Notes: generated from the letters alone by a model not told the origin. A stretch of 64,000 nucleotides of DNA from Phycisphaerales bacterium (GCA_003142595.1 PLMU01000007.1:246925-310924), one strand, 5' to 3'. Shown: positions 3,611 to 39,226, counted from the first letter of the stretch. Program-made: numbers and translations.

Positions 3611-4675
3611 TTAGTTAACTTTTTTTATACTGTAAAGATACGTAAAGCCCATTGCGACTTGGTCGGAATCTTTATCGCTATCGCTTTTCTGTTCCTCACG
3701 CGGTACGACCGCAACCTTTTCAACCAAAAGCTCCTGATAACTCTGAATTTCACCGGTTGTCAGATTGAAAATCATTTTGCCGGTATAGTTATCCTTATCA
3801 TCGATTAGGAATTTACTTGCAGATGCGCCTATTGTAGACTCCTTTTCCTGCTTGTCAGCACGCTTTGAGCTTGGAACAGCGTTCATATCAATAACGGCTA
3901 TCATCTGGTTGTCCTGTTTCTTCAAATCAGTCAGCGTATAAGCCTTATCAAATGATTTCGGCATAATCATTCCCGTAGGCGAAGCCGCTAAAGAACTCCA
4001 TTGATTTCCTTTTTCGCATAGTCCCTTTTTAACGGCCTTAGAAGTTTTGGAGTCAGATTTTTTTCTGGAAGAATCAGCTTTAATTTTCTTCTGCCTGTCT
4101 TTTTCACTAACGTATTTATCAGCTTTATCAGCGTCAAAGAGAGCCATCACCTGATGCCGCCTTGCAATTTCTTCATCGCTGAAAAGTCCGGTGGCAACTG
4201 CAGCGGCCGAACCTTCTTTCAAAATCGACCTCGCTGCCGATGCGTCGAGAACTTTGACAGTTCCCCTGGGCGAAATTCTGATTTTGTAACTTGCGCCTAT
4301 AAGCTTCATCAGCGGGTCGGACTTATCCTTTTCTCTTAAACTGTTAAAATCGGCTACTACGCCTTTGAGGGTCTCTGAGAAATAACTTAATTGCTTAATG
4401 GTAATATTAACCACAGCATTACCCTGCTGGTCAACCGATTCAACTCTTTGCTTAAAGACCATTCCGAGAGTACCGCTTTTATGACTTTCCTTGGTTTTGT
4501 TTATAGAGGGCTGGATAAAATTGACATTCCCTGAAAAGCCAGTAACAACTTTATATACAGTTTCGCTTTTCGGCGCAAGATTCAGTTTCATCTCAATAGG
4601 CGGCGTTCCCCAGCCGACTAAAACAGACAAAGCGACTCCTAATAATATAACAGTAACAACTTTCTGGTTACTCAT
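3611..4675 (-). CDS. hypothetical secreted or membrane-anchored protein
   Basis: 354 aa with an N-terminal hydrophobic anchor (VVTVILLGVALSVLVGWG) and a Lys/Ser-rich central linker. No known motif. Confidence 0.55.
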   Translation of the reverse strand: MSNQKVVTVILLGVALSVLVGWGTPPIEMKLNLAPKSETVYKVVTGFSGNVNFIQPSINKTKESHKSGTLGMVFKQRVESVDQQGNAVVNITIKQLSYFSETLKGVVADFNSLREKDKSDPLMKLIGASYKIRISPRGTVKVLDASAARSILKEGSAAAVATGLFSDEEIARRHQVMALFDADKADKYVSEKDRQKKIKADSSRKKSDSKTSKAVKKGLCEKGNQWSSLAASPTGMIMPKSFDKAYTLTDLKKQDNQMIAVIDMNAVPSSKRADKQEKESTIGASASKFLIDDKDNYTGKMIFNLTTGEIQSYQELLVEKVAVVPREEQKSDSDKDSDQVAMGFTYLYSIKKVN

Positions 4676-4867
4676 GATTTGCTCCTAAAACCATTAAATC
4701 TCAATATTTAATCTATAATATACAAGTCGGCAATTATAACAACAAAAATTCAATGAGCAAATTTTTTATGGACAAATGCAGCTTTTTGTAATTTTGGATT
4801 TATTTCTGTCCCGGTTATGCTTATAATAGCCCCTTTATTAATCTAACTCACTTAGGAGAAAATAGAT

Positions 4868-6535
4868 ATGAAAAGCGATATGGTCAGGAAAGGTTTTCAA
4901 AGAACTCCGCACAGGGCGCTGTTGCGGGCAACCGGACTTAAAGATGAAGATATGACTAAGCCCCTGATTGGCATAGCCAACAGCTTTTGCGAAATTGTTC
5001 CGGGACATATGCACCTGAACAAAGTAGCCCAAAGAGTCAAAAAAGCCGTTCGCGCGGCCGGCGGTGTGCCGTTCGAGTTCAATACTATCGCCATTTGCGA
5101 CGGTATCGCGATGGGACATACCGGAATGAAATATTCACTGCCCTCCCGCGAGATAATCGCCGACTCGGTCGAGTCGATGGTTCGTGCGCATTGTTTCGAC
5201 GGACTTATCTGTATCCCGAACTGCGATAAGATTATACCGGGAATGTTAATGGGCTCTGTACGAGTAAATATCCCGACAATTTTTGTTTCAGGCGGACCGA
5301 TGGTTGTCGGCAAAGATTCGAAAGGCAATGACGTTGACCTCAGCTCTACCTTCGAAGCTGTCGCGGCTTTCAAGGCCGGCAAAATCGACGAGGCAAGGCT
5401 GCACGAAATTGAATGCGTCGCCTGCCCTTCGCAGGGAAGCTGCTCGGGAATGTATACTGCCAACAGTATGAACTGTCTTTGCGAGGCTATCGGAATGGCG
5501 CTGCCGGGCAACGGAACTATTCCGGCAATCAGTCCAAAAAGAAATAAATTATACACCGCGGCAGGCAAACAGATAATGTCCCTTATCGAAAAAGATATAA
5601 AACCGCTTGATATTATATCCGCCGAATCTATTGATAACGCCTTTATGCTCGATATGGCGATGGGCGGCTCGACAAATACCGTTCTTCACGCATTGGCAAT
5701 CGCCAACGAGGCGGAAATTAAATACGACCTCGAAAGAATAAACGGTATCAGCGACAGATGCCCGAATATCTGCAAGGTTTCACCTTCGAGCAAATGGCAT
5801 GTCCAGGACGTTGACGATGCCGGCGGCGTTAGTGCAATATTAAAGGAGATTAGCAAAATAAAAGGTTTGCTCAATCTCGATTGCATGACCGTAACAGGCA
5901 AAACGCTCGGTAAAAACATCGCAAGGTCAAAAATTAAAAACACCGACTGCATACATACGCTCGAAAACGCGTATTCCAAAACCGGCGGCCTTTCGATTCT
6001 CAAAGGTAATCTCGCCCCCAACGGCAGCGTAGTAAAAACCGCAGGCGTCGCCGAAAAAATGCTGCGACACAGCGGCCCTGCCGTAATTTTTGAAAGCCAG
6101 GAAGATGCCTGCGAAGGCATTCTGGCGGGCAAAGTAAAGGCCGGCGATGTTGTCGTTATCAGAAACGAAGGCCCAAAAGGCGGACCGGGAATGCAGGAAA
6201 TGCTTGTGCCGACAAGTTACATTGTTGGCGCAGGCCTCGGCGAATCGGTCGCTCTGGTTACCGACGGCAGATTCAGCGGCGGAACCCGCGGTGCCTGCAT
6301 CGGCCACGTAAGTCCCGAAGCATTTGTCGGCGGTCCGATTGGCCTCTTGAAAAACGGCGACATAATTGAAATCGATATCCCGGCAAGAAAACTCGGCGTC
6401 AAACTTTCCGACGATGAGCTAGCAAGAAGAAAGGCACAATTCGTACCGCCTAAGCCGAAGATCACCAAAGGCAGTCTTGCTAAATACGCCGCTATGGCGA
6501 CAAGCGCCGATACCGGTGCAGTTTTGAAATGGTAG
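4868..6535 (+). CDS. ilvD: dihydroxy-acid dehydratase
   Basis: 555 aa. [26 protein letters not shown] and GGSTNTVLH are the classic IlvD/Edd family blocks. A GGAG lies upstream of the ATG. Confidence 0.95.
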
Positions 6536-11096: not shown

Positions 11097-11827
11097 CAGC
11101 CGGCCCTCCTTTCATCCAGCACAGCGCCGCAGGCCGCTATCCAGCCGGCGATAAGAATGATAAAATATGATATATCCTTGAATTCGAGCACGCCCCTGAG
11201 AATGGATTCGAAATGTTCCTGAAAACTCATCAGCCCAACAGTATTGACTGCCCCCGCCGGCAGAAATGTCGAAAGATAATTCATCGTCGTCGGCATTCCC
11301 GCAAAGACAAGCACGCTGCAGGCCACAACCGACAGCACAAAACTGATTACCTGATTATTGCTGACAGCCGAGAAAAAGCATCCGACCGCAAGAAAGCCTC
11401 CTGCCATAAGAATTGTCGCAAGATATTCTGCCGCCATAAGTCCCAAATCCGGCTTGCCGAGATAACAAACCGTCAGTGCCATCGGAAAGGTCAGCGATAT
11501 CGCGACAATAAGGAACAGCCATGCGGCAAGAAATTTTCCCAGCACCGCCTGCATAACCGTAATCGGCAGCGTGAACAGCAATTCGATTGAGCCGGTCTTT
11601 TTCTCTTCAGCCCAGAGTCTCATCGCCGCAGCAGGAACAAGAAAAACGAACAGCAGCGGCATATTCACAAAGAATATCATCATATCCGCCTGGCGGGATT
11701 CGAAGAATCCGTCTTTAAAGGCCAGATAGCCTGAAAAGAACAGATACACCACCAGGAACACATACGCAAGCGGAGTCGTAAAATACGATTTGAACTCCCT
11801 TTTGAATACTGCTAAAAAACCCTGCAT
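11096..11827 (-). CDS. ABC-2 type transporter permease (GldF-like)
   Basis: 243 aa with 6 TM segments. Its stop overlaps the gldG-like start. Confidence 0.8.
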   Translation of the reverse strand: MQGFLAVFKREFKSYFTTPLAYVFLVVYLFFSGYLAFKDGFFESRQADMMIFFVNMPLLFVFLVPAAAMRLWAEEKKTGSIELLFTLPITVMQAVLGKFLAAWLFLIVAISLTFPMALTVCYLGKPDLGLMAAEYLATILMAGGFLAVGCFFSAVSNNQVISFVLSVVACSVLVFAGMPTTMNYLSTFLPAGAVNTVGLMSFQEHFESILRGVLEFKDISYFIILIAGWIAACGAVLDERRAG

Positions 11828-11842
11828 CTTAATTTTCCTTTT

Positions 11843-12589
11843 TTATGCAACTTTATGTGCTGTTATTTTTCTAAACACTTCATCCAATGTGCAGTTATAT
11901 TCTGCTTTTAATTTCTCCGGCGTGGAATCCGCCAGGATTTTCCCTTTAGAAATTATTATCGCCCTGTTGCAAACGCCTTCAACTTCTTCGAGGATATGCG
12001 TTGAAATGACTATGCATTTTTCCTTCGCCATATTTTCGATAAGCAGCCTGACCTCGTGTTTTTGATTCGGGTCAAGTCCGTCTGTCGGCTCATCGAGAAT
12101 CAGCACCGGCGGCTCGTGTATGAGAGCCTGCGCAAGGCCGACTCTTCTTTTGTATCCTTTCGAGAGCGTCTCGATTGTCTGATGATAAACGGATTCGATA
12201 TGACACATCGCCACCGTTTTATCGAGCGCGTCTTTGCGTCTTTTGCCTTCGAGTCCCCTTGCATCGCAGACAAAATTCAAAAACGCCCCTGCCGTCATAT
12301 CGCTGTAAGACGGAACATTTTCCGCCAGGTATCCGATATTTTGGCGAACCTGGATTGGATTTTTTATAATATCGTAGCCGCAGATTGAAGCTGTTCCGCC
12401 GTCAGGCCGTAAAAAGCAGGCAAGCATCCGCATTACGGTGCTTTTCCCTGCTCCGTTTGGCCCCAGAAATCCGAGCACCTGACCTTTTTCCACCTCGAAC
12501 GACACGCCGTCAACGGCGACTATCGGTCCGAAACTTTTACGCAATTCTTTTATCTTTATCATCTGTCTGTCCCCATAAATTTTCAACAC
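11843..12589 (-). CDS. ABC transporter ATP-binding protein (GldA-like)
   Basis: Walker A GPNGAGKST, signature LSKGYKRR and Walker B LILDEPT. The more likely start is the ATG at 12562 (MIKIKELRKSF). Confidence 0.9.
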   Translation of the reverse strand: MLKIYGDRQMIKIKELRKSFGPIVAVDGVSFEVEKGQVLGFLGPNGAGKSTVMRMLACFLRPDGGTASICGYDIIKNPIQVRQNIGYLAENVPSYSDMTAGAFLNFVCDARGLEGKRRKDALDKTVAMCHIESVYHQTIETLSKGYKRRVGLAQALIHEPPVLILDEPTDGLDPNQKHEVRLLIENMAKEKCIVISTHILEEVEGVCNRAIIISKGKILADSTPEKLKAEYNCTLDEVFRKITAHKVA

Positions 12590-12618
12590 CGCAGAAAATT
12601 ATATCTGAAATTCTCTTA

Positions 12619-13233
12619 TTAGAACATCTTAAAAATAGTCGGCAGTAGTCCTGCATGCTCAAGTCCATCCTGAATTTCAAGGAAGCCCAGCAGCAATACG
12701 AACCACAACACCTCAAACAGCGTCTTCCTGAAAATCTTCGGCTTTACGGTATATTCTTCCGGCTCTCTTAATAATTTAAACGATGGAAAGAACACGGGCG
12801 TTTTTTTGCAATAATCGCTGAACGCTTCTCCGTGAATCTTAGCCAATTTTTTCTGCTCTGCCTTAATCACCATTGGATAATAAAACGCGAAAGCAAGAAA
12901 GACACAGGCCGGTATCGTTAGCGTTTCTGTCGCAAGGCCAACTCCTACCGCCCCTAAAAAGCTGAAAAAATACAAAGGATTTCGGGACATCGAATATGGT
13001 CCTTCCGTTATAAGCGTTCCGCTTTTATATCCCGAAATATACATCGAGCACCACAACCGGCCTACCACTGCGAATCCTATTAAAACAGTTCCTGCCAGAA
13101 ATAACACCGGCCCTACCAAACTATCTTCCCATCGGCTCTGGGATATCAATATTAATACAACAATACTGATAACAAATAGCCGGCTTATTAGTATTCTTTG
13201 CTTCCTTACAAAACTTCTTTTTGCCACTATCAA
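12619..13233 (-). CDS. isoprenylcysteine carboxyl / phospholipid methyltransferase-family membrane protein
   Basis: 204 aa, polytopic. GPYSMSRNPLYFFSFLG matches the ICMT/PEMT family block. Confidence 0.7.
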   Translation of the reverse strand: MIVAKRSFVRKQRILISRLFVISIVVLILISQSRWEDSLVGPVLFLAGTVLIGFAVVGRLWCSMYISGYKSGTLITEGPYSMSRNPLYFFSFLGAVGVGLATETLTIPACVFLAFAFYYPMVIKAEQKKLAKIHGEAFSDYCKKTPVFFPSFKLLREPEEYTVKPKIFRKTLFEVLWFVLLLGFLEIQDGLEHAGLLPTIFKMF

Positions 13234-13403
13234 TGCTCCTAAAAATAATTAGTACAGAATCATACCTTTGTTTGTTCTTTATGACAATCTTAATTTTCCC
13301 TGCCTAAAACCAGCCCATAATTCCTTATTTTATTAAAATTTTTAAACATAAGTCTTTTATTTGCAATGACTTAAAAAAATCTTAAAAATATCCCCAAAAA
13401 CCC

Positions 13404-13432
13404 TTTACAAAAACTAGGCTTTCTACTATAAT
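13404..13432 (+). promoter_or_regulatory. sigma-70-like promoter, TTTACA-N17-TATAAT
   Basis: The -35 TTTACA is at 13404-13409, followed by an exact 17-nt spacer and a consensus -10 TATAAT at 13427-13432. No protein gene lies downstream on this strand. Confidence 0.5.
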
Positions 13433-13438
13433 AGGTAA

Positions 13439-13574
13439 TGTGTTAATGCTCTTTTTTTCTTATATAAGGTTTTGGTTTCGTTGAAGCGAAATGTTTATTT
13501 TATAACCCAAGTTATATATTTAAAATTCGCATGGGTTTTGCTTCAACAAGGCTCAGGTTTCCTGAGCCTTTTTT
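13439..13574 (+). ncRNA. candidate orphan small RNA (about 135 nt)
   Basis: It lies between the promoter above and a rho-independent terminator: ggctcagg(13550-57)-ttt-cctgagcc(13561-68) followed by TTTTTT. Internal pairings include gttgaagc/gcttcaac, gcgaa/ttcgc and ataac-ccaa-gttat. The only ORF here (13472, TTG start) looks spurious. Confidence 0.45.
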
Positions 13575-14850
13575 ATTGCGCTTTTATCACGGGGCCGCGT
13601 TGCACAAAAGCCGACAAACCCAAATCGTTCTGGTCGGGAGCCCATCTTAAATCTTTAAGGTCTTCGGTTTTTATAAATTCGACAGTTCCATCGTTAAACA
13701 GGATATTGCAGCCCTCTTCTTTGTGATTATTGGTGGACATAATTTCCGCCCCGCCGCACTGGTTCCAGCCGCCTCTTGTCTCAAAAAGCAAAACCATATC
13801 TTCAGGAGCGCTGCTGCCGAGACTTTCAATATTTATATTAATAGCATAACTTGAACGCCATTGGCTGTCGTCGCCTGCGCACTTAAATTTCTTTGAATCA
13901 ACATTTTCTTTTTCTGTAAGCAAATCGCACCACTGCGAAGAGGTTGGATATAATCCTTTGTTATCATTGGCATATGCAATCATTGCAACGCCGAGGCTCT
14001 TCATATTATTTTCGCACATAACCCGGCTGGCCATATCTCTTGCTTTCACCAGCGCGGGCATAAGTATTGCCAGCATAATAATCGGCAGTATAATCATACC
14101 AACTGATGAAACAGCAATTCCTGCCGCCGCAACTCCGTCGCCTTTTAGCTGCCCGCCGCTTCTCTTTATCGAATTTATTCCTACGATGCCGAGAATCAGA
14201 CCCGCCAGTGAGGTAAGACCTGCGGTAAAGAATCCCAAAATACCCAGCACCAGGCTGCTTATAGCAAAGCCGGATGTCTTTACGTTTTCATTTATCAAAC
14301 CGGCTGCAAACTTCTGCGGCTCAACTCCCGCGTCAACCAATGCGTTGACCGCGTCGCATCCTTTGGCAAAAAATATAGTCACGAGTATTAAATTGGCCAG
14401 CCCGAATATTATTCCTAAATACGGAATACCGCCAAGAATCATAAATATCGCAATAATCAGACCCAGACCTTCCGGCACAATGGGCGCATTAATCTGGCGA
14501 TCTCTGACCATTTTATTGTAATCCTGAGTCCAGCCCCAATACGCCTGGAAGAACCAGTAAAAATTAAAGAACGGTATAAACAAAAACCCTACGGCTTTGC
14601 CCGGCGTAGTTCTTGCCCCGATTCCCTCGATAGCCGCCCACATCTTATAGAGCAGTACCATTCCGACAACAGTAGCGAAAATCATCGGGAAAAATGAAAA
14701 TATATATAGTATTAATCCCGCCGTCGCCAGGGGCGGTGCGATTTTCTGGGCTAATAATATTGAAGCAATGCCGATTGGAAATGTAATCCAGAAGATTATA
14801 TTGCCCGCAAGCCAGCCGGTCACATAAAAACTTTTTTTAACTTTTTTCAT
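13573..14850 (-). CDS. polytopic membrane protein with a C-terminal pseudopilin-like (DUF1559 / H-X9-DG type) domain
   Basis: 425 aa. The N-terminal half has multiple TM helices. Next comes a glycine-zipper TM pair (GILGFFTAGLTSLAGLILGIVG). The tail then reads ALVKARDMASRVMCENNMKSLGVAM...NNHKEEGCNILFNDGTVEF, which resembles planctomycete type-II pseudopilin-like proteins but lacks an N-terminal prepilin signal. Confidence 0.65.
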   Translation of the reverse strand: MKKVKKSFYVTGWLAGNIIFWITFPIGIASILLAQKIAPPLATAGLILYIFSFFPMIFATVVGMVLLYKMWAAIEGIGARTTPGKAVGFLFIPFFNFYWFFQAYWGWTQDYNKMVRDRQINAPIVPEGLGLIIAIFMILGGIPYLGIIFGLANLILVTIFFAKGCDAVNALVDAGVEPQKFAAGLINENVKTSGFAISSLVLGILGFFTAGLTSLAGLILGIVGINSIKRSGGQLKGDGVAAAGIAVSSVGMIILPIIMLAILMPALVKARDMASRVMCENNMKSLGVAMIAYANDNKGLYPTSSQWCDLLTEKENVDSKKFKCAGDDSQWRSSYAININIESLGSSAPEDMVLLFETRGGWNQCGGAEIMSTNNHKEEGCNILFNDGTVEFIKTEDLKDLRWAPDQNDLGLSAFVQRGPVIKAQ

Positions 14851-29997: not shown

Positions 29998-30222
29998 AAA
30001 AAAAGGTCTGAATAAACAGACCTTTTTAAAGCTTGGCAGCCTCCACCTGTGCCGATGAAAGGCCATTTTTAGAACCCAAATTTAAAAGCGGTAAGTCAGC
30101 TTCAAGCGTCCGAAAGTCCTGTCGAGCAGGCGTTTTCGAGCCGGCAGGTTCCGACTCCCTAAAAATGGGCATAGGTTCAAAAATAAAACCTTCCTGTCGA
30201 ACACCGCAGGGGCAACCTTGCT
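29998..30222 (-). ncRNA. candidate structured RNA, 6S-like rod (promoter + ~195-nt body + intrinsic terminator)
   Basis: The 5' end (agcaaggttgcccctgcggtg) pairs imperfectly with the 3' end (cacaggtggaggctgccaagct). Internal helices include aagg/cctt, ttttt/aaaaa, gaacc/ggttc and gagtcgg/ctgactt, plus an apical hairpin cgaaa..cctg-ctcga-cagg..tttcg. The RNA ends in aaaaaggtctg-tttatt-cagaccttttt followed by a T-run. Only a TTG-start shadow ORF is present. Confidence 0.45.
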
Positions 30223-30387: not shown

Positions 30388-30740
30388 GGGGGCGAAAGGC
30401 TTCGACCGGACGGGTAGAGAAGCAGGTCGCATGTCCAGGACGTCGGTTGGCCTGGCTAATCATCCGACACAAATTTAATTGGCAACTACCAATTAAGTAT
30501 GGCTGCCTAATTTAGGCGCCCGTCCTGCGGAATTGCTCCTGCCAGTTTCGTAAGGGCGTCAAAATGCGGGATAGCTCTGCATGGCTGTTCGTCAATGCAG
30601 TGCGAAAAATATTAACGAACTGGCTGAGTTGAAAGCCTGTTGATCGGCGTTCGGCAAGGCGAGATACAAACGACCAACTAAACATGTAGAAGCCTGTTTT
30701 GAAACGTTTCGGGACGGGGGTTCGAATCCCCCCGCCTCCA
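30388..30740 (+). ncRNA. ssrA: transfer-messenger RNA
   Basis: The 5' GGGGGCG pairs with the 3' CGCCTCC, including the G3:U70 alanine identity pair. The T-arm is GGGGGTTCGAATCCCCC and the discriminator A is at 30740; CCA is not encoded. The tag frame ends at the TAA at 30508-10 and reads ...GNYQLSMAA*. Confidence 0.92.
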
Positions 30741-32132
30741 GTTTTCCGCTGAAAATGCGGGTGTGCATTCTCTTTCTGAAAATGGGGTTTCTTTGCGGTT
30801 TAAAGCCTCAAAACCGCTATTTCGTGAAGTTATAACCCCACTGGAATTGTTAGGATTTGTTAGGCTTTTATAGCCTTCGTGGGCAGTTTTTGGGCAGTAA
30901 ATTTTTGACTTATTTTCTGCAATACAATCATCAGTGCCGGTCTTAATAGCCTCGGTCTGCTTAACGATAAAATCGGGCAGGCTTTCGATAGTTTCCCTCT
31001 GCTGTCCAGCGTATAGGTGCGTATATTTGCTCAGGGTTAAATTTATGTCTGTATGCCTCATCAGGCTTTGAATAACCTTTGGGTTCGCCCCTGTTTGGAT
31101 TAAAAGGCTTGCTGTGCTGTGTCTCAAAGAATGAAAATCGGCAAACTTGCCGTCAACCTCATAGGGTATTGCTTCAGTAAGCACTTTTCCCTCTTTGTCT
31201 CGTATCGCTGTTGCTTCAAGGTCGGTCTTAATCATCAAATAGCCTTTTTTGAGAATAAAGGCCGCTGACTGTGGGGTTTTATTTCGCAGAAAATCTTTAA
31301 TTATTCCAGCGGTCGTTTTTCGCAGCAGCAATACCGCTCCCCGCCGCGCCTTTTCGTTTGCGTCCCTGACTTCGACAGTTCCAGCCTTAAAATCAAAATC
31401 TGACACTTTCAGGGTCTTTATTTCGTTGTATCTTAGGCCGCTTTCAACGGCCAGCCGGTAAATCAAAGCCCGCTCCGCTCCAGATATACCCCTGAACGGC
31501 TTGCCAGTTTCCGCTGCCCTTATAAGCCTTGCGACTTCATCGACGGTTAAAGCTCTGCGCGGGTGTCTTTGGTCGGCCTGTAAAACCTGCGGCAATTTAA
31601 TCAATTTAAAGTTATTCTTTGGCAATAAGCCTGTTTCGCAAAGGTAAGTTGTAAACTGCTTAAAGCAGGCGATATGGTCGCGCTTTGTCTTTGTCGCAAT
31701 AGTCAGGCCGTTTATGTAAGCTGTGAATCTAACAGCGTCAAGGTCTGATATAACATTAAACTTGCATTTTTCGCAGATATGGTTAATCCGGTTTTCGACG
31801 CGCTGTAAATGTTCGCCTGTGATTTGTTTGATTTTCAGACTTTCAATAAAATTCTTTATATGACCTTCTAACTGGTTTTTCCCTGCCGCCCTTGCCGCTG
31901 ATAGTAAACCAATACCATTAAGTTTTCTGACAATTCTTGACGGCATACAATCAATAGCCCGCTGTAAATCCAAAGAGATAACACCGTTTGAGTAGTAAAC
32001 ATCTATAAGTTGTTCGATTGTATGGGCAAGACTCTGGCTTGTCTTTTCAGTTTCAAAGGCTATTAGCCTGAAACGCTCGTCCCGAAAACGAAAATCCAGA
32101 TAAAATTTATTGCCGCTTTTAAATATCTTCAT
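30678..32132 (-). CDS. int: tyrosine recombinase / phage-type integrase
   Basis: 484 aa carrying the catalytic set: R (GLRYNE), HSLRHSTAS and LSKYTHLY. The last ~20 codons (…ENWRRGDSNPRPETFQNRLLHV) are the antisense translation of the tmRNA 3' end. Confidence 0.9.
   Translation of the reverse strand: MKIFKSGNKFYLDFRFRDERFRLIAFETEKTSQSLAHTIEQLIDVYYSNGVISLDLQRAIDCMPSRIVRKLNGIGLLSAARAAGKNQLEGHIKNFIESLKIKQITGEHLQRVENRINHICEKCKFNVISDLDAVRFTAYINGLTIATKTKRDHIACFKQFTTYLCETGLLPKNNFKLIKLPQVLQADQRHPRRALTVDEVARLIRAAETGKPFRGISGAERALIYRLAVESGLRYNEIKTLKVSDFDFKAGTVEVRDANEKARRGAVLLLRKTTAGIIKDFLRNKTPQSAAFILKKGYLMIKTDLEATAIRDKEGKVLTEAIPYEVDGKFADFHSLRHSTASLLIQTGANPKVIQSLMRHTDINLTLSKYTHLYAGQQRETIESLPDFIVKQTEAIKTGTDDCIAENKSKIYCPKTAHEGYKSLTNPNNSSGVITSRNSGFEALNRKETPFSERECTPAFSAENWRRGDSNPRPETFQNRLLHV
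30719..30742. repeat. attL core (within the ssrA 3' end)
   Basis: GGTTCGAATCCCCCCGCCTCCAGT is identical to 39065-39088. Confidence 0.85.
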
Positions 32133-32356
32133 TTTTTAGCCCTCTTTGGTTTTTTAGACATAAGCTCAAGCCCAAAATACTTGCATAGCATATCCGCTGT
32201 TTCACAATATAGGTCTTTGCCTTGCATTATCTTGCAAAGCTGACTTTGTATTTTGCTATGAGAAACACCGGCCTTAGCTAAATCCTTTGCTATCTCATAC
32301 CGGCTTTTACCGCTTTTACTTATCTCTTTTCTTATGGTATCTAAAATCATAATCAT
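32129..32356 (-). CDS. XRE/Cro-like helix-turn-helix protein
   Basis: 75 aa with SRYEIAKDLAKAGVSHSKIQSQL, an HTH-like pattern. It overlaps the int start by 4 nt. Confidence 0.55.
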   Translation of the reverse strand: MIMILDTIRKEISKSGKSRYEIAKDLAKAGVSHSKIQSQLCKIMQGKDLYCETADMLCKYFGLELMSKKPKRAKK

Positions 32357-32534
32357 ATTTTACCTCTCTACTTTATTGCTGTAAAGCAAAAAATAAAATT
32401 TTTTTCTTTTTTATTATAAAATCTTGCTCATTCGTTCGCTTGCTTTCGCTCTCTTAACGGCTTCGCTTCGCTTACTCTTTCGCAGTACCCGATTTTCTAA
32501 TAAAGTGCTGTTAAGGGTGGCTTATTATAAAATA

Positions 32535-32661
32535 CTTTAGTTTCTGAAGTCGTAAACAGTCTTAACGCCTTTAATTTCTGAAGTTATTAAGCGATTTTTT
32601 GTATTTTTTTGCCCTGAACAGCTTTAGTTTCTAAAGTTATACCTGCTTTAGTTTCTGAAGT
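32535..32661. repeat. four iteron-like 16-bp direct repeats, CTTTAGTTTCTGAAGT
   Basis: Copies lie at 32535-50 (exact), 32569-84 (1 mismatch), 32622-37 (1 mismatch) and 32646-61 (exact). An A/T tract at 32388-32425 and a TTCGCT-rich stretch at 32430-32490 lie alongside. Confidence 0.75.
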
Positions 32662-33126
32662 TGTTTCTAAATTTTTCCGTTTTTTAAATCCGCCGTTTAT
32701 AGGCACGTTTGACTTTCCCTTACCGGCTTTGAAATTATCAGTTCCGTATTCCTGCCAGTTAGTTATCAAAGCTATTTTGTGGCTCTGCCGCTTAACTCCG
32801 CAGCCAAGCACGGCTATTTCAATAAAGCCTTTGGCAACAAGCTGGTCTATTGCCTTGCTTATAGTAGCGGTCGAATACCCAAACTGCTTATGTATTGATT
32901 TATAGGTCAATTTAAGTTCGCCGTTATTTTCTGCGAAAAATCGCTGGTTTTTTCCTTTGCCGGTCGAATTGACTTTCAGCCGCATATACAGTTCCAGCAG
33001 TATTTGTTTTGCCGCTCCGGTAAGTTTAATAAATGCCTTATGTCGTATTAACAGCTTGTTAATATAAAACATTTCTATTTGAGAAAGTGTAGTTTCATAT
33101 AGCCAGTTTTCCTTTTTTTCTGCCAT
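32587..33126 (-). CDS. winged-helix protein, possible replication initiator or regulator of the island
   Basis: The ORF track gives 32587..33186. The ATG at 33126 (MAEKKENW) avoids overlapping the upstream gene. YSTATISKAIDQLVAKGFIE is wHTH-like. Its 3' end overlaps iterons 3-4. Confidence 0.5.
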   Translation of the reverse strand: MAEKKENWLYETTLSQIEMFYINKLLIRHKAFIKLTGAAKQILLELYMRLKVNSTGKGKNQRFFAENNGELKLTYKSIHKQFGYSTATISKAIDQLVAKGFIEIAVLGCGVKRQSHKIALITNWQEYGTDNFKAGKGKSNVPINGGFKKRKNLETTSETKAGITLETKAVQGKKIQKIA

Positions 33127-33130
33127 AACC

Positions 33131-33415
33131 CTATCCGATGTACCCCTGCCCTGTATTTTTCGATTCTGCGCCGGAAAAAGCCTCATTATGGCCGTCCTGT
33201 AAGATTTGGTAAGGCCGGACAGCGTATAACGGGCAAGCCAAGTCTGTACATAGACGTACTTCTTCCCTTTGCCAGTAAACGCACATCAAACATTGAGCAT
33301 TTACGCAGGCTCTTAGGCTCTTGCCTTGTACAGCCTTTTTATAAATCCCCCGATATGCCTTTGGTATTCCTGCAAGTCGCTGTTCTATTTTCTGTATCCT
33401 GTCGATATTCTTCAT
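33131..33415 (-). CDS. small cysteine-rich hypothetical protein
   Basis: 94 aa with CVNAQCLMCVYWQREEVRLCTDLACPLY, a 4-6 Cys zinc-finger-like cluster. Confidence 0.5.
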   Translation of the reverse strand: MKNIDRIQKIEQRLAGIPKAYRGIYKKAVQGKSLRACVNAQCLMCVYWQREEVRLCTDLACPLYAVRPYQILQDGHNEAFSGAESKNTGQGYIG

Positions 33416-33648
33416 TTTGAATTATCCTTTAAAAAATCGGCAATCTGCTCCGCTGTCCAGTATCGCCGCTTATTGATTATCTTTGCAGCGGCGGGCAACT
33501 GTTCACTATAAAGCCATTCATAAAGCGTAGTCCGGCTTATACCCAAAAGACGCGCAAGAGATGTAAGGCTGATTAACTGTTTGTCAATCATTGCCGTCCC
33601 CTTTGGCTGCAAGACCGGCAAGTGCCTTTTCGACTGCCTCAAAATCAA
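33412..33648 (-). CDS. excisionase/AlpA-type HTH protein
   Basis: LARLLGISRTTLYEWLYSEQLP..RRYW matches the excisionase-family HTH. The likely start is the ATG at 33591. Confidence 0.6.
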   Translation of the reverse strand: MILRQSKRHLPVLQPKGTAMIDKQLISLTSLARLLGISRTTLYEWLYSEQLPAAAKIINKRRYWTAEQIADFLKDNSK

Positions 33649-33772
33649 AAAACATCTTATTGCCTATGAAAAGGCAGGGAATTTTCCCTTTTTTGGCTTG
33701 TGTTTTCAGCCAACCGGCAGGAATTTTAAATTCAGCGGATAGTCTTAACAGATTGTATAGTTTAGCTTTCAT
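33584..33772 (-). CDS. second excisionase-family HTH protein
   Basis: 62 aa. LLRLSAEFKIPAGWLKTQAKKGKIPCLFIGNKMFF fits the excisionase DNA-binding pattern. Confidence 0.55.
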   Translation of the reverse strand: MKAKLYNLLRLSAEFKIPAGWLKTQAKKGKIPCLFIGNKMFFDFEAVEKALAGLAAKGDGND

Positions 33773-33814
33773 ATACCGCTATTCTATCTTGCGGTATGTG
33801 CGCTAACTGTGTCT

Positions 33815-35845
33815 CTAACTGTGATTTTTCTGTGATTTTATTTTATTTTCAGACAGCTTAAAAATGCCTTTGCCGTCTGACACTATTATTTTATCCCAAG
33901 CGGGGTGTGATTTTGATTTGTTTCTAAAAGTATGTATAAGCCGATAATTTTGATTTACCGAGCCTATACGTTCGCCGATTGTTTTTTCAGACAAACGCCC
34001 ATTTTCCCATAAAAGGCTGACACAAAGAGCCTGTGTTTTGTTGAAGGTGTATTCTTTGCCATACCATACAACAGACAAAAAATCTTCCGAGTGCCAGCAG
34101 TCTTTGCCCTTAATCGCAGTTTGTTTTTCCCTCAAAGGATTTTTATTCCCGCCGTTTTGCTCCGTGTCGGTCAAATTTCCCTTTGCAGGTGTGCCGGTAT
34201 CTGGTTTGTCTTTTAAAAGATTTTCCGCTTTCAAATAGGCTTTAACATAGCTCAAATAATCATTAAGCCGGTTAAATAGAAATCCATTTGTATTTTGTTC
34301 GGGGTCATCGCCATTTTTTAAAAAATCTTTAAACAATGGCGGTTTTGGGGCTAAGGTTAAATTATATATTCCTAAAGCATTATCTTTAATTTGTTTATAT
34401 AGCTGCGGGCTAACAGAATAATCATAAGCAAGAAACAATGCAGCGCAATACTTGCCTATGTCATTATTTGAGAACGATAGTGTTTCATTAGCTAAGCTGT
34501 TAAGGTTATTGACAAAATCCATAACCTTTTCGGTGTTTCCGAAAACCTCTAAATGTTTTAGTTTCTTTTCAAGAATATGTGAATTTATTAAAAATCTTGT
34601 GGCTTTATCTATCAGCGGAAGTCTTATTTTATCCCAATCAGTGTTAAGTATTTTTTCAGTCTCTTTGGCAATTTGATATAGCTTATCGCTGTATTTGCCG
34701 CTGTCTGAAATTTCAGGTTTTTTCAAGTTCTCTTTATTGCGTTCTTTTTCAACAAAACTGCTTAAACTATCGCATATTTCAGGCAGACGATTGATAGAGT
34801 CATTCAACCATACTGAAATATACCCTGAATCATTGCCTCTTAATTTATCGTTCATAGCCGTTTCGGCTCTAATCCATAGATTTTCTATTATTCCTGACGC
34901 TTCGCAAAAAAGGTCAGTTATCGGCAAGTCTATAAATCCTTGCCGGTTCATTATTTCTTCGCTGTCTGTACGAAATATTAAATGCACGTGGGACAGGTCT
35001 GTCAAAGTATCTTCTGTTATTTGAGATTGACCTTGCTGTTTGTAATTTATTTCTTTAAGAATAGTAACTAAGTGCCTTATGCTGCGGGCAAATATTTCGA
35101 TTTTTTTTAGGTTTTCGGCAGGTGGTTTTTCGTCATTCCATTGATTTAATAAATCATAGACTTTAAACAGGTTTCCTTTTGTCTCTTTGATAAGTTTTTC
35201 ATCGTTCAAGTATTTATCAAAGCCGTTTAATTCCGTTAATTCAAGCAGAGTTTTATTAACTGCTTCAATACTGGCAATAATATTTTCGGGTATGTTAGCC
35301 CGTCTTAAAGCGGGCATAAATTGAAATATAATCCAGTCCCATTCTTTTTTGCTTACTGTATCCGGCCATTCAAAATGGGGCAGTTCCTCTTTGGGTGTTT
35401 TTTTCCAAGAGTAGATACAATCTTCTAATCCCTCTGCTGCACTCTTTACAAGACTTTGATATTTTTCGATGTATGATAAAAGGTGTTTATCTTCACGAGT
35501 CAATATCTTACTGCAATCCGCCCGACTTTTTTCTATGCTGCGATTGTTCTGTGGAACATCTACAAGTTTTTTTTCCGCCGGAGTACCTTTTTGATATTTT
35601 TCAATGTCTTTTTTTTCACGCTCAGTACGAGGTATTTCACCATAAACGGCATTGCGAATAATTTCATCGCTCAATTCTTTAATTTTTTCATTACCCTCTC
35701 TTACGGGAGTCCAAAGAGCTTCCAAAGCCCTTTCAATCCTTGTTTTGTTATAATATTTTTTTGCCATTTTTTCACTTGTCTTTTTTCGGGTCGGTCTGAA
35801 CAGCGGCAGGTACAGGTGAAAGACAAAAACCTTACCGCTGTTCAA
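33815..35845 (-). CDS. large orphan protein (about 650 aa), predicted mostly helical, with a possible C-terminal wHTH
   Basis: This is the longest ORF of the island. The likely ATG is at 35767 (MAKKYYNK). No catalytic motif was recognised. The C-terminal 90 aa (WYGKEYTFNKTQALCVSLLWENGRLSEKTIGERIG) look like a DNA-binding module. Confidence 0.7.
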   Translation of the reverse strand: MNSGKVFVFHLYLPLFRPTRKKTSEKMAKKYYNKTRIERALEALWTPVREGNEKIKELSDEIIRNAVYGEIPRTEREKKDIEKYQKGTPAEKKLVDVPQNNRSIEKSRADCSKILTREDKHLLSYIEKYQSLVKSAAEGLEDCIYSWKKTPKEELPHFEWPDTVSKKEWDWIIFQFMPALRRANIPENIIASIEAVNKTLLELTELNGFDKYLNDEKLIKETKGNLFKVYDLLNQWNDEKPPAENLKKIEIFARSIRHLVTILKEINYKQQGQSQITEDTLTDLSHVHLIFRTDSEEIMNRQGFIDLPITDLFCEASGIIENLWIRAETAMNDKLRGNDSGYISVWLNDSINRLPEICDSLSSFVEKERNKENLKKPEISDSGKYSDKLYQIAKETEKILNTDWDKIRLPLIDKATRFLINSHILEKKLKHLEVFGNTEKVMDFVNNLNSLANETLSFSNNDIGKYCAALFLAYDYSVSPQLYKQIKDNALGIYNLTLAPKPPLFKDFLKNGDDPEQNTNGFLFNRLNDYLSYVKAYLKAENLLKDKPDTGTPAKGNLTDTEQNGGNKNPLREKQTAIKGKDCWHSEDFLSVVWYGKEYTFNKTQALCVSLLWENGRLSEKTIGERIGSVNQNYRLIHTFRNKSKSHPAWDKIIVSDGKGIFKLSENKIKSQKNHS

Positions 35846-36074
35846 ACCGCTTAGCGGTTAATTACTCCGCTGTCCCTATTATTCTTAACTTTCACGCTAT
35901 TTTATCACAAAAACCCGTATATTAGAAAACTTTTTTACTTCTGTTTTGCAGTTTGTAAAGAGCTTATATAGTCAGGTAACAATGTCCGGCGGAACGGTGG
36001 GTGGTTCGGTGTGGGCAACTGGTATGAGTTTTGATCACGCCTACAATGCCGTAATGTAAGCCTGCAATGCTTTT

Positions 36075-36929
36075 TTATTTTTTTTGCGTAAACAGGTCAA
36101 ATGTCTGCGTAAGTGTTTCCCTGCCTTTTTTCTGAATAAAATCTAATCTGTATTTGTTTTTTATTTTCCCGTTGTTGTCTAAACGGTCTAAAATCATTTG
36201 ATAATAGTCAGGATGGATTTCGCAACAAATAAAATTTCTTTTTAGATATTTACACAAAACAATCTCAGAGCCACTACCGCCAAAGAGAATAAAAACATCA
36301 TCATTGTCTTGTGTGCAAGATTTAATAAGCATTTCAACGAGAGCCAATGGAATTTGACAAGCGTGAAATGTCTTGTCTTTAGAAACATTTTTTACAAGGT
36401 CAAAATAAAACCAAGAATAAGGCATACGCCCTTTTGAACCATTTGCCAAATTATTAAGAATGCGTTTGTCAGTGGGATTTTTATAGGGAACGGCAACCTG
36501 GTCTTTGTAAAAATGATTGTCTTTGCTTTTTGTTGCGTGAAGAATAGAACGGTGGGCAGTAGTAAATTTTTTCGGACTGTGTCCGACATTCGTATTATAC
36601 GCCCATACATAATCGTGCACACCATAAGCGTTGTCATCCAAATACTTTACTCTTAAATGAGCGTTTTGCTTGGGGTAATTCATCATAAACAAATTGCCAG
36701 TTGGCTTTAACACACGCATACTTTCTTTTGTCAGTTCAATATACCAATCAATATATTCATTCCATTTTGTCGTATAATTTTTCCCAGCATAATTAATTCC
36801 TACATTGTAGTCAGGATCACCATAAACCATATCCAAACTACCGTCAGGCAATTTTTTTAGAACTTGTAAAACGTCTTCATTGAAAACTTGATTTCTGAAA
36901 TTATTTAATATTTTATTACTCATCACCAT
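36075..36929 (-). CDS. beta-class DNA (N4-C or N6-A) methyltransferase
   Basis: 284 aa. Motif IV reads MVYGDPDYNVG (DPDY instead of D/SPPY). HACQIPLALVEMLI and motif I (FILFGGSGSE) follow. Confidence 0.85.
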   Translation of the reverse strand: MVMSNKILNNFRNQVFNEDVLQVLKKLPDGSLDMVYGDPDYNVGINYAGKNYTTKWNEYIDWYIELTKESMRVLKPTGNLFMMNYPKQNAHLRVKYLDDNAYGVHDYVWAYNTNVGHSPKKFTTAHRSILHATKSKDNHFYKDQVAVPYKNPTDKRILNNLANGSKGRMPYSWFYFDLVKNVSKDKTFHACQIPLALVEMLIKSCTQDNDDVFILFGGSGSEIVLCKYLKRNFICCEIHPDYYQMILDRLDNNGKIKNKYRLDFIQKKGRETLTQTFDLFTQKK

Positions 36930-37737
36930 TTTCTAAATAAGGGGTTAATTGTTTCAATAATTCTTTATTTGCAAGAACACAAATGCCTCTTGACTTTGCA
37001 AACATTTGTATGGTAGATGTAATCAACCGTACATCTATAATTCCTTTGTTTTCCGTTTTATGAATTATTTCTAAAATAAAATTACTAATCATTAGCGGTG
37101 CACTAATCACACTTAGTATTGTATTTACTCTGCCAACTTTTTTGTCGTATTCTATGAAATCAGGTTTTCCATTTACAATATGATATTTTACATCTTCATT
37201 CCAACCAAGTAAATCTATAAAATGTAAATACTCTAATAGTCCTATTTCCTTTGACTTAAATTTATCCATAAATCCGTCTTTTAATACAAATGTTTCAATG
37301 TTATTAATGTAATCTGATATATCTTTGGAAGGTAAATATCGCAACTTGCCTTCTTCAATTTCTTGGTGGTCTAATAGAAAACAATTCCGATAAAGCAACA
37401 CTAAAACCTTTTTGAAAGTAGATTGACTGATGATGGAAATTTTAATCAGGTATTCCCAGACTTTTTCAAACGCCCAACTTCCAGTTTCGCTTATTCCATT
37501 CGCACCAACATTCGGCGACATATCATATACATTTGGAACTTTTCTTAATGTTTCTTTTCCAGGTTTAAAAAAATATATTTCTTTTCCATTTAACAAAGAG
37601 GATATTAAATGTTTTTTCGGATTTTCAATAGTGCCGCCTTCAAAAGCAATTGCCTCTCTAATTCTTTTTGCTCTTTTGTCAATAAATTCTCTATTGCTCT
37701 TAAAGATTTTTGTTTTTATTATATCGTGTTCTGTCAT
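36916..37737 (-). CDS. putative type II restriction endonuclease (partner of the MTase)
   Basis: 273 aa, overlapping the MTase start by 14 nt. It carries a possible PD-(D/E)xK element (FIDLLGWNEDVKY). The assignment rests on context only. Confidence 0.45.
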   Translation of the reverse strand: MTEHDIIKTKIFKSNREFIDKRAKRIREAIAFEGGTIENPKKHLISSLLNGKEIYFFKPGKETLRKVPNVYDMSPNVGANGISETGSWAFEKVWEYLIKISIISQSTFKKVLVLLYRNCFLLDHQEIEEGKLRYLPSKDISDYINNIETFVLKDGFMDKFKSKEIGLLEYLHFIDLLGWNEDVKYHIVNGKPDFIEYDKKVGRVNTILSVISAPLMISNFILEIIHKTENKGIIDVRLITSTIQMFAKSRGICVLANKELLKQLTPYLENGDE

Positions 37738-38179
37738 ATTACTTACACCTGTCTTTTATTGTCAAAATTAAAGTTATTGTTTTAAAGATAGTCATTTTAT
37801 TGTTCCGCTTCAAGAGCCGAAACGGCACTTGATTATGATGATTTTCAACAGCTTCTTTCCCTATCCAGTTAAGAGTCGGCATTTCAAAATCCTTTTGGCA
37901 ACTTCATTGATAGTGAAATTATACGATTTTTGGACTTGTTAGCAATACAATTCAGCTCTTGGCAAAACCTTAACTTTTCTTAACACCCTTGACAGTTCTT
38001 GCCCCTTTTTAGGGAGTCAAAAAATAGCGGAAAATGTGCGTTTTTATATACAGTTAAAAACTCTAAAGTGTAAGGTTTTGTAAGGTTCTTTCAGCCGCTA
38101 AAAAGTCAACATTTGTCAATAGGTTCAGAGGTAACAAAAAGATACATTTTGAGCCTTTTTAAGTGGCGACATTCAGCGG

Positions 38180-38800
38180 TTAAAGTATATTTAATCTTTC
38201 CATTGCTATTTTGGCTTGTAAACCCAATATTTCTATTTTTCGCTCAAGAGATTGAAGCTTTCTAACCTTTCTGGTGGGTCTTCCTCTCCAAGTCCAACGT
38301 TTAATTTGGTCTCGAAGTTCTTCTTTCTGTCTTTCAGCTTTTAAGTAATATCCCATCTGGCCAAATCTGCCTGAATGGTTTTCATTGCGGCTTTCATAGG
38401 ACAGGTCGTAACAATGCCGACAGCCAAAGTAATTTCCGCCCGATACAATATAAAGCGTTCCTGTTCTGCGTCCGCAATATGCACCGTTTATAACCAGCGG
38501 ACAAATAAACCAGTAACGAACACCCCCGAAGTGACAAGGGGTTGTTGTAAGTTGGATTTTATAATCATAATCTGTTTTTTTACCAGTGCTTCGGTTTGTA
38601 TTGGTATAATTCACTTTTGCATATAATTCATTGGTATCCACAATTATGCCTATAGAGTTTTGTCTGCCTGAAAGCCTATACGTCCAAGTCAGAGTTGACG
38701 CACCATAGCCCTTTAGAAGGCCAAATTCTTTCAGCTTGACTATATTAAGCTTTGTTGCCTCTTCGACAGTTATTTTAGCCCCTAAACGGTATCCGCCCAT
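38180..38800 (-). CDS. hypothetical zinc-ribbon protein
   Basis: 206 aa with CHFGGVRYWFICP...CGRRTGTLY...FGCRHCYDLSYESRNE (a CxxxxxxxxC...C / CxxC arrangement) and a basic coiled C-terminus. Confidence 0.55.
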   Translation of the reverse strand: MGGYRLGAKITVEEATKLNIVKLKEFGLLKGYGASTLTWTYRLSGRQNSIGIIVDTNELYAKVNYTNTNRSTGKKTDYDYKIQLTTTPCHFGGVRYWFICPLVINGAYCGRRTGTLYIVSGGNYFGCRHCYDLSYESRNENHSGRFGQMGYYLKAERQKEELRDQIKRWTWRGRPTRKVRKLQSLERKIEILGLQAKIAMERLNIL

Positions 38801-38864
38801 ATTTTCCCCCTTTTTTGTGATTTACCGAAATCAATAAGGATTCTATACATTTTTTATTACTCGA

Positions 38865-39065
38865 TTAGCCTTTTGGGGCTGTTATATTAGCTTCAATCAG
38901 GGTTTTAATTGTTTTTCTGATATGCTCTGGCAGGTTAGGCCAAGCGGAAATTACTTGCTTTAAATCAGGACAAGGGTTATCTTTTGGGCAGTTTTTGGCC
39001 AGTGCCGCTTCTTGGTTTTGTTGTAAGTTATGATTTGATAAAGGATTGTGATTTTCTGGCGGTAG
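38865..39065 (-). pseudogene. startless 66-codon ORF tail in phase with int across the att core
   Basis: Reading the minus strand through attR in the int frame (TGG at 39086-84) gives WRRGDSN-LPPENHNPLSNHNLQQNQEAALAKNCPKDNPCPDLKQVISAWPNLPEHIRKTIKTLIEANITAPKG*, with the stop at 38867-65. The tail contains no ATG, GTG or TTG. Confidence 0.5.
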
Positions 39066-39088
39066 GTTCGAATCCCCCCGCCTCCAGT
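39065..39088. repeat. attR core (displaced ssrA 3'-end fragment)
   Basis: Identical 24-mer to 30719-30742. It is followed by the hairpins agtcttc/gaagact and gtccct/agggac plus a T-rich tract, which look like the original ssrA terminator. Confidence 0.85.
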
Positions 39089-39226
39089 CTTCGTTCGGAG
39101 AATGAAGACTGCCACGTCGGAGTCCCTATTAGGGACGAAGACGGGCATTCTGTATTTTATTAGAATTTTTTGCTCCGAACTTCGACTCGGCAGGCCATTC
39201 TACTATTAATTGCAGGAAGGTTAGTA

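Follow-up and report, generated by a model that had tools for sequence, protein, structure and literature searches.

The integrase gene (int) of an 8.3-kb mobile island in a Phycisphaerales genome very probably spans the attachment site attP of its own element, so that integration into a tmRNA gene detaches the 3′ end of int, excision would rejoin it, and the two resulting integrase isoforms would differ in role. The island lies within the window, that is, the whole 64-kb stretch of DNA analysed, and the evidence comes from the reading frames at both island ends, their comparison with related islands, and unsplit forms of the gene in phage contigs.

Integrase reading frame at both ends of a tmRNA-targeting island

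The tmRNA gene that served as integration target was located at 30388-30740 on the plus strand (ARAGORN; Rfam RF00023, 170.5 bits), and its 3′ end is regenerated by DNA of the island. The att core, an exact 24-nt direct repeat GGTTCGAATCCCCCCGCCTCCAGT, was found at both island ends: the attL copy, reaching from the tmRNA T-loop to its 3′ end, at 30719-30742, and the attR copy, a displaced tmRNA 3′ fragment, at 39065-39088. Between them, the island (30743-39064) carries int, an HTH gene, a Rep-like gene with iterons, an excisionase-like gene, a 676-aa ORF, an N6/N4 methyltransferase gene, ORFs of 273 and 206 aa and the int tail, with all listed genes on the minus strand. An intact tmRNA gene, a displaced fragment in direct orientation and an int between the two are the features by which Islander recognizes tDNA-targeting islands. 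In a close relative (L127), which shares 86% Int identity and occupies the same tmRNA site, but whose host flank and cargo are different, the sequence at attR differs from that of the window upstream of the core and is identical to it from the core inward, a pattern that confirms the boundary of the island.

In the island DNA that immediately adjoins the regenerated tmRNA 3′ end, a small hairpin (CCGC-TGAAAAT-GCGG, 30743-30775) lies within the int coding region; judged from its sequence, it may act as a replacement terminator of tmRNA. Apparent native hairpins, read as inverted repeats, occur beyond attR at 39087-39145, and this hairpin-forming flank may be the native tmRNA terminator. A 6S RNA gene (30036-30215, minus strand; Rfam RF00013, 60.6 bits) precedes the tmRNA gene by about 170 nt, in the opposite orientation.

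In the integrated form, int (30678-32132, minus strand) encodes 484 aa with a PF00589 domain at aa 194-374 (6.5e-23). The complete R...K...H-x-x-R...H...Y set of the tyrosine recombinase/phage integrase family is found in this protein, and its catalytic residues R221, K261, H334, R337, H360 and Y370 are invariant in the alignment columns across 77 homologues. The int frame crosses the core, which corresponds to codons 464-472 and is preceded by Y370, and reads ...ENWRRGDSN-PRPETFQNRLLHV followed by a stop, the last 13 codons (30719-30681) being tmRNA antisense. At the opposite island end, attR read in the int phase (TGG at 39086-39084) gives EDWRRGDSN-LPPENHNPLSNHNLQQNQEAALAKNCPKDNPCPDLKQVISAWPNLPEHIRKTIKTLIEANITAPKG and a stop, which represents a detached int 3′ end of 66 codons (39065-38868, stop at 38867-38865, minus strand) in int phase across the core. 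In the reconstructed excised circle, the two parts form one ORF of 537 codons, and near its end lies a conserved C-terminal motif, PDLKQVISAWPNLPEHIRKTIKTLIEA (38889-38969, minus strand), at aa 33-59 of the tail and aa 504-530 of the full-length protein.

Neither ATG, GTG nor TTG was found in the stop-to-stop frame at attR (39125-38868, 86 codons). A competing frame is open at attR as well, as a 62-aa ORF (38960-39148, minus strand), and based on the stop-codon frequency of the island, an open frame at attR has a chance probability of P~0.02. These results agree with the first-pass annotation, which had described the tmRNA-antisense end of int, the 66-codon in-phase continuation at attR, its lack of start codons and the second frame open for 62 codons, and had cautioned that openness is not proof by itself. 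As an open frame by itself is only weak evidence, the argument depends on how the window compares with related elements.

The detached tail is conserved in phase across related islands

In total, 95 protein homologues of the reconstructed 537-aa Int were obtained, those named by organism belonging to Sedimentisphaerales or Phycisphaerae, and the majority end in tDNA-antisense peptides, such as WRRGDSNPRPE, SGRQDLNLRPLDPQS, IGATGLEPATS, GFEP, RTRTCDL and others. Eighty homologous loci were collected from species-representative genomes, nearly all of them Planctomycetota MAGs, and the 78 int ORFs with a complete 3′ end were counted for tDNA overlap. Overlap with a tRNA or tmRNA gene was seen for 58 of these, antisense in 49 cases and sense in 9, with Arg, Ser, Thr, Cys, Leu, Lys, Asp, Tyr, Pro, Phe, Gln, Glu, SeC and tmRNA as targets. 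The far att copy was locatable in 22 islands, whose cores measure 19-75 nt and which are 3-11 kb in size, and attR was found open in the int phase in 21 of them (binomial P~1.4e-9), which cover about a dozen different tRNA/tmRNA targets; the other two frames at the far att copies are usually closed early, and L068 is the one related island out of phase.

Most of the in-phase tails (19/21) have D(P)DLxxVVxAWPxLPExI(K/R)xxIxxLV at their end, with only a few residues left before the stop, and those of L021 and L045 lack the W-P-x-L-P motif and have a variant helical end instead. Synonymous codons vary widely at the conserved motif positions, with Leu encoded by TTA, TTG, CTG, CTT and CTC, and the codons of Pro, Val, Asp and Lys varying too. 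Compared with the window, L127 is identical in DNA over the 150 nt after the core while 28% of its int codons differ, has five synonymous and four conservative changes in the motif, and is unrelated past the motif. Moreover, orphan database ORFs such as P0096, P0097 and P0111 have the same tail joined in the same frame to different att cores; P0097, which lies on the contig of the integrase P0003, reads ...KSGRQDLNL followed by SPKNHNDLSNHNLQENQKAALAKNCPQD...AWPNLPEHIK... Collectively, these sequence comparisons indicate that the tail is a conserved coding segment under protein-level selection.

If conservation acted on the DNA only, the tail would be the P arm of attP, containing sites for Int and accessory proteins, and its translation would be incidental. 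Consistent with this, the first ~150 nt after the core are those identical between the window and L127 despite the divergence of the int codons, and this stretch holds tandem 8-mers of the arm type, which are found again in both arms throughout the family. The last ~27 codons, however, lie beyond the arm repeats and are conserved as amino acids with varied codons across integrases of ~30% identity; the motif differs synonymously from that of L127, and the frame is open in phase in 21/22 islands, although DNA sites alone would need neither an open frame nor a fixed phase. Based on the amino-acid conservation with synonymous codons and the retained phase, we rejected the tail as a pure DNA-site artefact and consider conservation at the DNA level only improbable, while a coding tail of int accounts for these features.

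A sense-orientation mirror case was observed in 9 of the 78 relatives, in which the int ORF runs through the tRNA gene in sense and the regenerated tRNA lies downstream of int on the same strand. In L083 (255-466, 9262-9339), L048 and L049, the att core comprises the first 40-43 nt of the tRNA, and the far-end tail is still in phase. Islands with a 5′ tDNA fragment constitute a 4% minority in Islander (PMC4383910). Separately, integrases 62-77% identical to the window Int (P0003-P0024; L001, L002) were found with at least four different tDNA-antisense ends, namely the tmRNA-type WRRGDSNPRPE, SGRQDLNLRPLDPQS, IGATGLEPATS and RGDRIRTYG, which indicates that target choice shifts quickly within a narrow clade.

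Unsplit integrase genes in phage contigs

The tail alignment being too variable for a profile search, viral (IMG/VR) contigs were searched for the tail by degenerate DNA patterns. An unsplit gene, whose single ORF comprises int, a tRNA 3′ fragment in antisense and the tail, was found in the phage contigs L087, L107, L101, L111 and L123. L087 encodes a 573-aa protein reading ...KATGTYDG...GARTRNLRFRRP...DLVAIMDAWPSLPDALKAGIVAMVKAS... up to the stop, and L107, from an independent metagenome, has the same junction; L101 encodes a 528-aa protein (...VGLEPT...DLQGIVDAWPDLPADVRKMIVGVVK... and stop), and L111 and L123 each have an open frame of 498 codons (...GGSGIRTS...ELVAVMNAWPKLPDAIRAGSLSMVRAAGG and stop). 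The linker DNA of L087 is an antisense tRNA-Arg(TCT)-like fragment that extends from the anticodon stem-loop to the acceptor end, and ARAGORN detected a complete tRNA gene in none of the five contigs. In L087 and L101, whose integrases are distant from the window Int (~24-25% identity), int is located between phage helicase/primase genes and the large terminase, indicating that these are unintegrated genomes rather than prophage ends.

Tails in cis in phages and in phase in islands together indicate that attP lies inside int and that the Int C-terminus is swapped on integration. Both had been proposed in the first-pass annotation, and the test that it suggested, a search for homologues carrying the tail in cis, succeeded with the single-ORF contigs. 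L101 additionally has a 2.1-kb direct repeat in two copies (~4130-6250 and 11455-13575), 7,325 nt apart and flanking the int region; each copy holds a 444-aa ORF, and from their sequence the repeats could be an insertion sequence or an assembly duplication.

For the window element itself, the predicted attP junction is 5′-CAGCGGAAAACTGGAGGCGGGGGGATTCGAACCTACCGCCAGAAAATCAC-3′, and in the predicted empty attB the tmRNA 3′ end is joined to ...CCTCCAGTCTTCGTTCGGAGAATGAAGAC. The attP-junction pattern had no match in JGI metagenome contigs, a relaxed core-plus-tail pattern retrieved from metagenome contigs only another attR (L124), and neither a circular junction nor an empty site was recovered for this element from the JGI metagenome contigs. 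Such a result would be expected of a fixed, decaying island remnant, in which the tail is a fossil int 3′ end never to be rejoined. We consider this very improbable, because attL and attR are identical over 24 nt, int has all catalytic residues, and the tail is free of stops and frameshifts and keeps every conserved motif residue; in addition, the occurrence of L127 at the same tmRNA site, in a different flank and with different cargo, indicates recent mobility of the lineage. An int gene that is split and can be rejoined thus remains the preferred reading.

attP architecture and predicted structure of the integrase

Putative arm-type sites were identified on both sides of the core. The pair on the int side, ACTGCCCA-AAA-ACTGCCCA (30880-30898, minus strand), lies 137 nt from the core and encodes ...YCPKTAH..., and that on the tail side, ACTGGCCA-AAA-ACTGCCCA (38985-39003, minus strand), lies 61 nt from the core and encodes ...ALAKNCP.... 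In both arms the 8-mers are tandem, in direct orientation and with an 11-nt period, and the arm 8-mer has seven matches in the 64-kb window, of which four belong to these two pairs. Equivalent arm pairs, such as CTTGGCGC-xxx-CTTGGCGC and two copies of CACTCCGCCA, are present in most relatives, where the distance to the core is 78-160 nt for the int-side pair and 51-94 nt for the tail-side pair. The semi-conserved peptides flanking the core (YCPKTAH and LAKNCPK; CLAK and DLARFLA in relatives) are explained by the arm repeats that encode them.

An AF2 model of the reconstructed Int was built with the 77 homologues; as MAFFT misplaced the short tail ORFs beside full integrases, it has no alignment depth in the tail, and the mean pLDDT was 35 when no alignment was used. 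With the alignment, aa 1-390 were modelled at pLDDT >90 and comprise an N-terminal three-strand sheet and helix (strands 2-6, 9-16 and 19-24, then the helix, all at pLDDT >90), followed by the core-binding and catalytic domains. The region aa 405-499 has a pLDDT of 30-50 and is predicted to be disordered, and two tail helices (506-512 and 518-529) were modelled at pLDDT 71-86 with no alignment depth there. By Foldseek, the folded part matches full-length lambda Int 1z1b (388 aligned columns), as well as Tn1549 Int, XerA and IntI. The predicted N-terminal arm-binding domain and the putative arm repeats on both sides of the core are the features of a lambda-type heterobivalent integrase.

The predicted disorder coincides with the attP-encoded part of the protein, that is, the arm sites at aa 412-418, the core at 464-472 and the arm sites at 491-498. 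According to the model, the whole attP is located inside the part of int that encodes a predicted disordered linker of ~100 residues, and the ~260 bp of attP appear to double as code for a linker that tolerates almost any sequence. This tolerance may explain the easy retargeting between tRNA and tmRNA genes.

Comparison with known systems

The closest precedent is the myxophage Mx8, with its intP (phage form) and intX (prophage form). In Mx8, attP is part of int, which acquires a new 3′ end upon integration (PMC6070905); the Islander paper likewise describes the Mx8 and SSV integrases as extending across attP (PMC4383910). In the 533-aa Mx8 Int (L081:5208-6806), we located the antisense tRNA 3′ end (...STGLEPV...) ~110 residues from the C-terminal end. 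Work by Tojo in 1996 and Magrini in 1999 is said to have found that integration replaces 112 C-terminal Int residues by 13, that int includes the arm sequences flanking the core on either side, and that IntX is less active. The likeness to Mx8 consists in an att core inside the int ORF, 3′ of the catalytic domain and composed of an antisense tRNA 3′ end. In the window, too, the core is part of the int ORF and follows the codon for the catalytic tyrosine, and the ORF continues in phase at the opposite prophage end, there with protein-level selection as judged from sequence.

BLASTP of Mx8 Int against the reconstructed Int and the tail gave no significant alignment (E at least 0.25), and no similarity of sequence beyond the general fold was detectable between Mx8 and window Int, so the likeness is one of design, not of demonstrable descent. 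The two also differ in that Mx8 is one 49.5-kb myxobacterial phage, whereas the window type is a large Planctomycetota family of small islands and phages with many targets, sharing a short conserved C-terminal motif that is unlike the Mx8 tail. In the literature searched, Mx8 was the only bacterial integrase found to rewrite its own C-terminus.

The first-pass annotation had pointed instead to the split int of SSV-type elements and to integration-dependent immunity in mycobacteriophages; both are comparable, but they are more distant than Mx8, which it had not named. In SSV1-type fusellovirus and pTN3-like integrases, the gene contains the att site and is partitioned by integration and restored by excision, the split integrase might be inactive, and excision may need an intact outside copy (PMC5861418, PMC8371274); such “suicidal” integrases have been described as exclusive to archaea (PMC8371274). 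The SSV type interrupts the gene, whereas the window Int keeps all catalytic residues in one ORF and loses only a tethered C-terminal module. An SSV-type split was therefore rejected, all domains and catalytic residues remaining in the 484-aa prophage ORF.

In the cluster G/N/P mycobacteriophages (BPs, Brujita), integration cuts the repressor gene, and the lost part is a degradation tag. Broussard et al. reportedly found in 2013 that integration at an attP inside the coding region swaps the C-terminus and thereby changes protein stability or activity. Here, the element cuts the integrase gene itself rather than a repressor gene; integration-dependent immunity was rejected since the att core is in int and the HTH genes (32129-32356 and 33412-33648) are far from the att sites. 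With the lambda type and Islander elements, the window element shares an N-terminal arm-binding domain, core-binding and catalytic domains, arm repeats in both arms, a regenerated tDNA and a displaced fragment that marks the other island end. The lambda attP is separate from the int coding sequence, whereas that of the window element is located wholly inside it.

Proposed mechanism

According to the sequence, the excised int would encode three parts: the arm-binding, core-binding and catalytic domains (aa 1-~400), a linker predicted to be disordered and encoded by attP (an 8-mer pair, the 24-nt tmRNA-like core and a second pair), and, at aa ~504-530, the conserved C-terminal module with its two predicted helices. 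The int ORF is cut inside the core when it recombines with the tmRNA gene, which leaves a prophage int that retains every catalytic residue and ends in the 13 tmRNA-antisense codons, with the 66-codon tail stranded at attR, 8.3 kb away and, lacking a start codon, unable to initiate its own translation; excision would rejoin both pieces. Under the mechanism proposed here, full-length Int would be made only from the free element and could be the version adapted to attP x attB integration. The truncated prophage Int would have altered, probably lower, activity and, together with the HTH_17 excisionase-like protein (33412-33648), would probably drive the excision that restores the gene. In this manner, recombination may rewrite its own enzyme and help to set directionality and prophage stability, as reported for Mx8 IntP/IntX.

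By analogy with Mx8, on which the regulatory role rests, loss of the tail likely changes integrase activity or directionality; the first-pass annotation had suggested that the split could couple Int stability or directionality to the integration state. Candidate partners of the two-helix module are a neighbouring protomer, the excisionase or a host factor, and the convergent antisense overlap of the int 3′ end with tmRNA may damp int expression in the lysogen. A broader proposal, which we put forward tentatively and at somewhat below even chances, is that in thousands of elements, in Planctomycetota and possibly beyond, the two-helix module on its attP-encoded linker functions as an integration-state switch, that is, a cis-encoded directionality or activity factor.

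Breadth and annotation of the tail family

A tail profile was searched against 1.84 billion representative proteins at E<=1e-3 and gave 8,386 matches. The best 150 of the 8,386 are all short orphan ORFs of 41-166 aa, many of which start with a tRNA-antisense peptide (GFEP, DSNP, IRT) just before the tail, and those with a source name are called “hypothetical protein”; from their sequences, these best 150 appear to be displaced integrase C-termini. A second tail-profile search, in a word-indexed protein database, yielded 17 small ORFs and no long protein. The tail motif had no match in Pfam, NCBIfam or PDB sequences, and the N-terminal helices of PvuII were discarded as a relative of the tail, their weak resemblance (E=0.2) not being significant.

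The thousands of ORFs of 41-166 aa ending in the motif that gene callers report could be taken to mean that the tail forms a small gene of its own at the end of the island and matches the int phase only by chance. That many of these ORFs start at unrelated positions, in the host flank or in the tRNA-antisense core, argues against it, as do the 86-codon frame of the window without ATG, GTG or TTG, the int phase kept in 21/22 islands (P~1e-9), and the fusion of the tail to int in phage contigs. An independent gene was therefore rejected as extremely improbable, and the displaced 3′ end of int is retained as the explanation.

Two copies of the tail motif in one frame were observed in the orphan ORFs P0116, P0117, P0124 and P0135, which may have been left behind by integrations that took place in tandem or one after another at a single site. 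In L125 (2238-2540; P0221), a 100-aa fragment has the last recombinase helix, ...AAKHYLQITDDHFRRAAE... (catalytic-tyrosine-like), fused to the tail motif; it adjoins a host glycosyl hydrolase gene, with no tRNA nearby, and is either a deletion remnant or a member of a sister family with att cutting upstream of the catalytic tyrosine.

A literature search found no paper on this Planctomycetota integrase family or the tail motif. On the basis of the sequences compared, the int-spanning attP is a family-wide, unannotated trait in Planctomycetota, whose principle is already known from Mx8. It follows for annotation that int ORFs called from integrated genomes of the family end in meaningless tRNA-antisense peptides, that the far boundary of an island (attR) can be placed precisely by means of the in-phase tail, and that contiguity of int and tail tells unintegrated from integrated elements in metagenomes. 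A design found otherwise only in Mx8 in the literature searched becomes a family trait with a defined motif, and the role of the swapped C-terminus becomes directly testable.

Island cargo and neighbouring genes

The island genes named below are all on the minus strand. An HTH gene lies at 32129-32356, and an HTH_17/excisionase-like gene at 33412-33648 (PF12728, 5e-10; PHROG excisionase) is, from its sequence, a candidate for the island directionality factor. The Rep-like ORF (32587-33186) matches PHROG replication-initiation families, and four 19-nt direct repeats (CTTTAGTTTCTGAAGTCGT and variants) were observed at 32535-32664, at and just beyond its 3′ end. These repeats are probably iterons of an island replication origin, which suggests that the excised circle replicates. 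The N6/N4 DNA methyltransferase gene (36075-36929) is overlapped by a 273-aa ORF with no family match (36916-37737), and the two may form a restriction-modification cargo. Directly after the tail, an unassigned 206-aa zinc-ribbon ORF is located at 38180-38800; in close relatives (L127, 5366-5803; the P0003/P0097 contig), the gene right after the tail encodes a small terminase (Terminase_2), which suggests that these 6-8-kb islands are phage satellites that redirect helper packaging.
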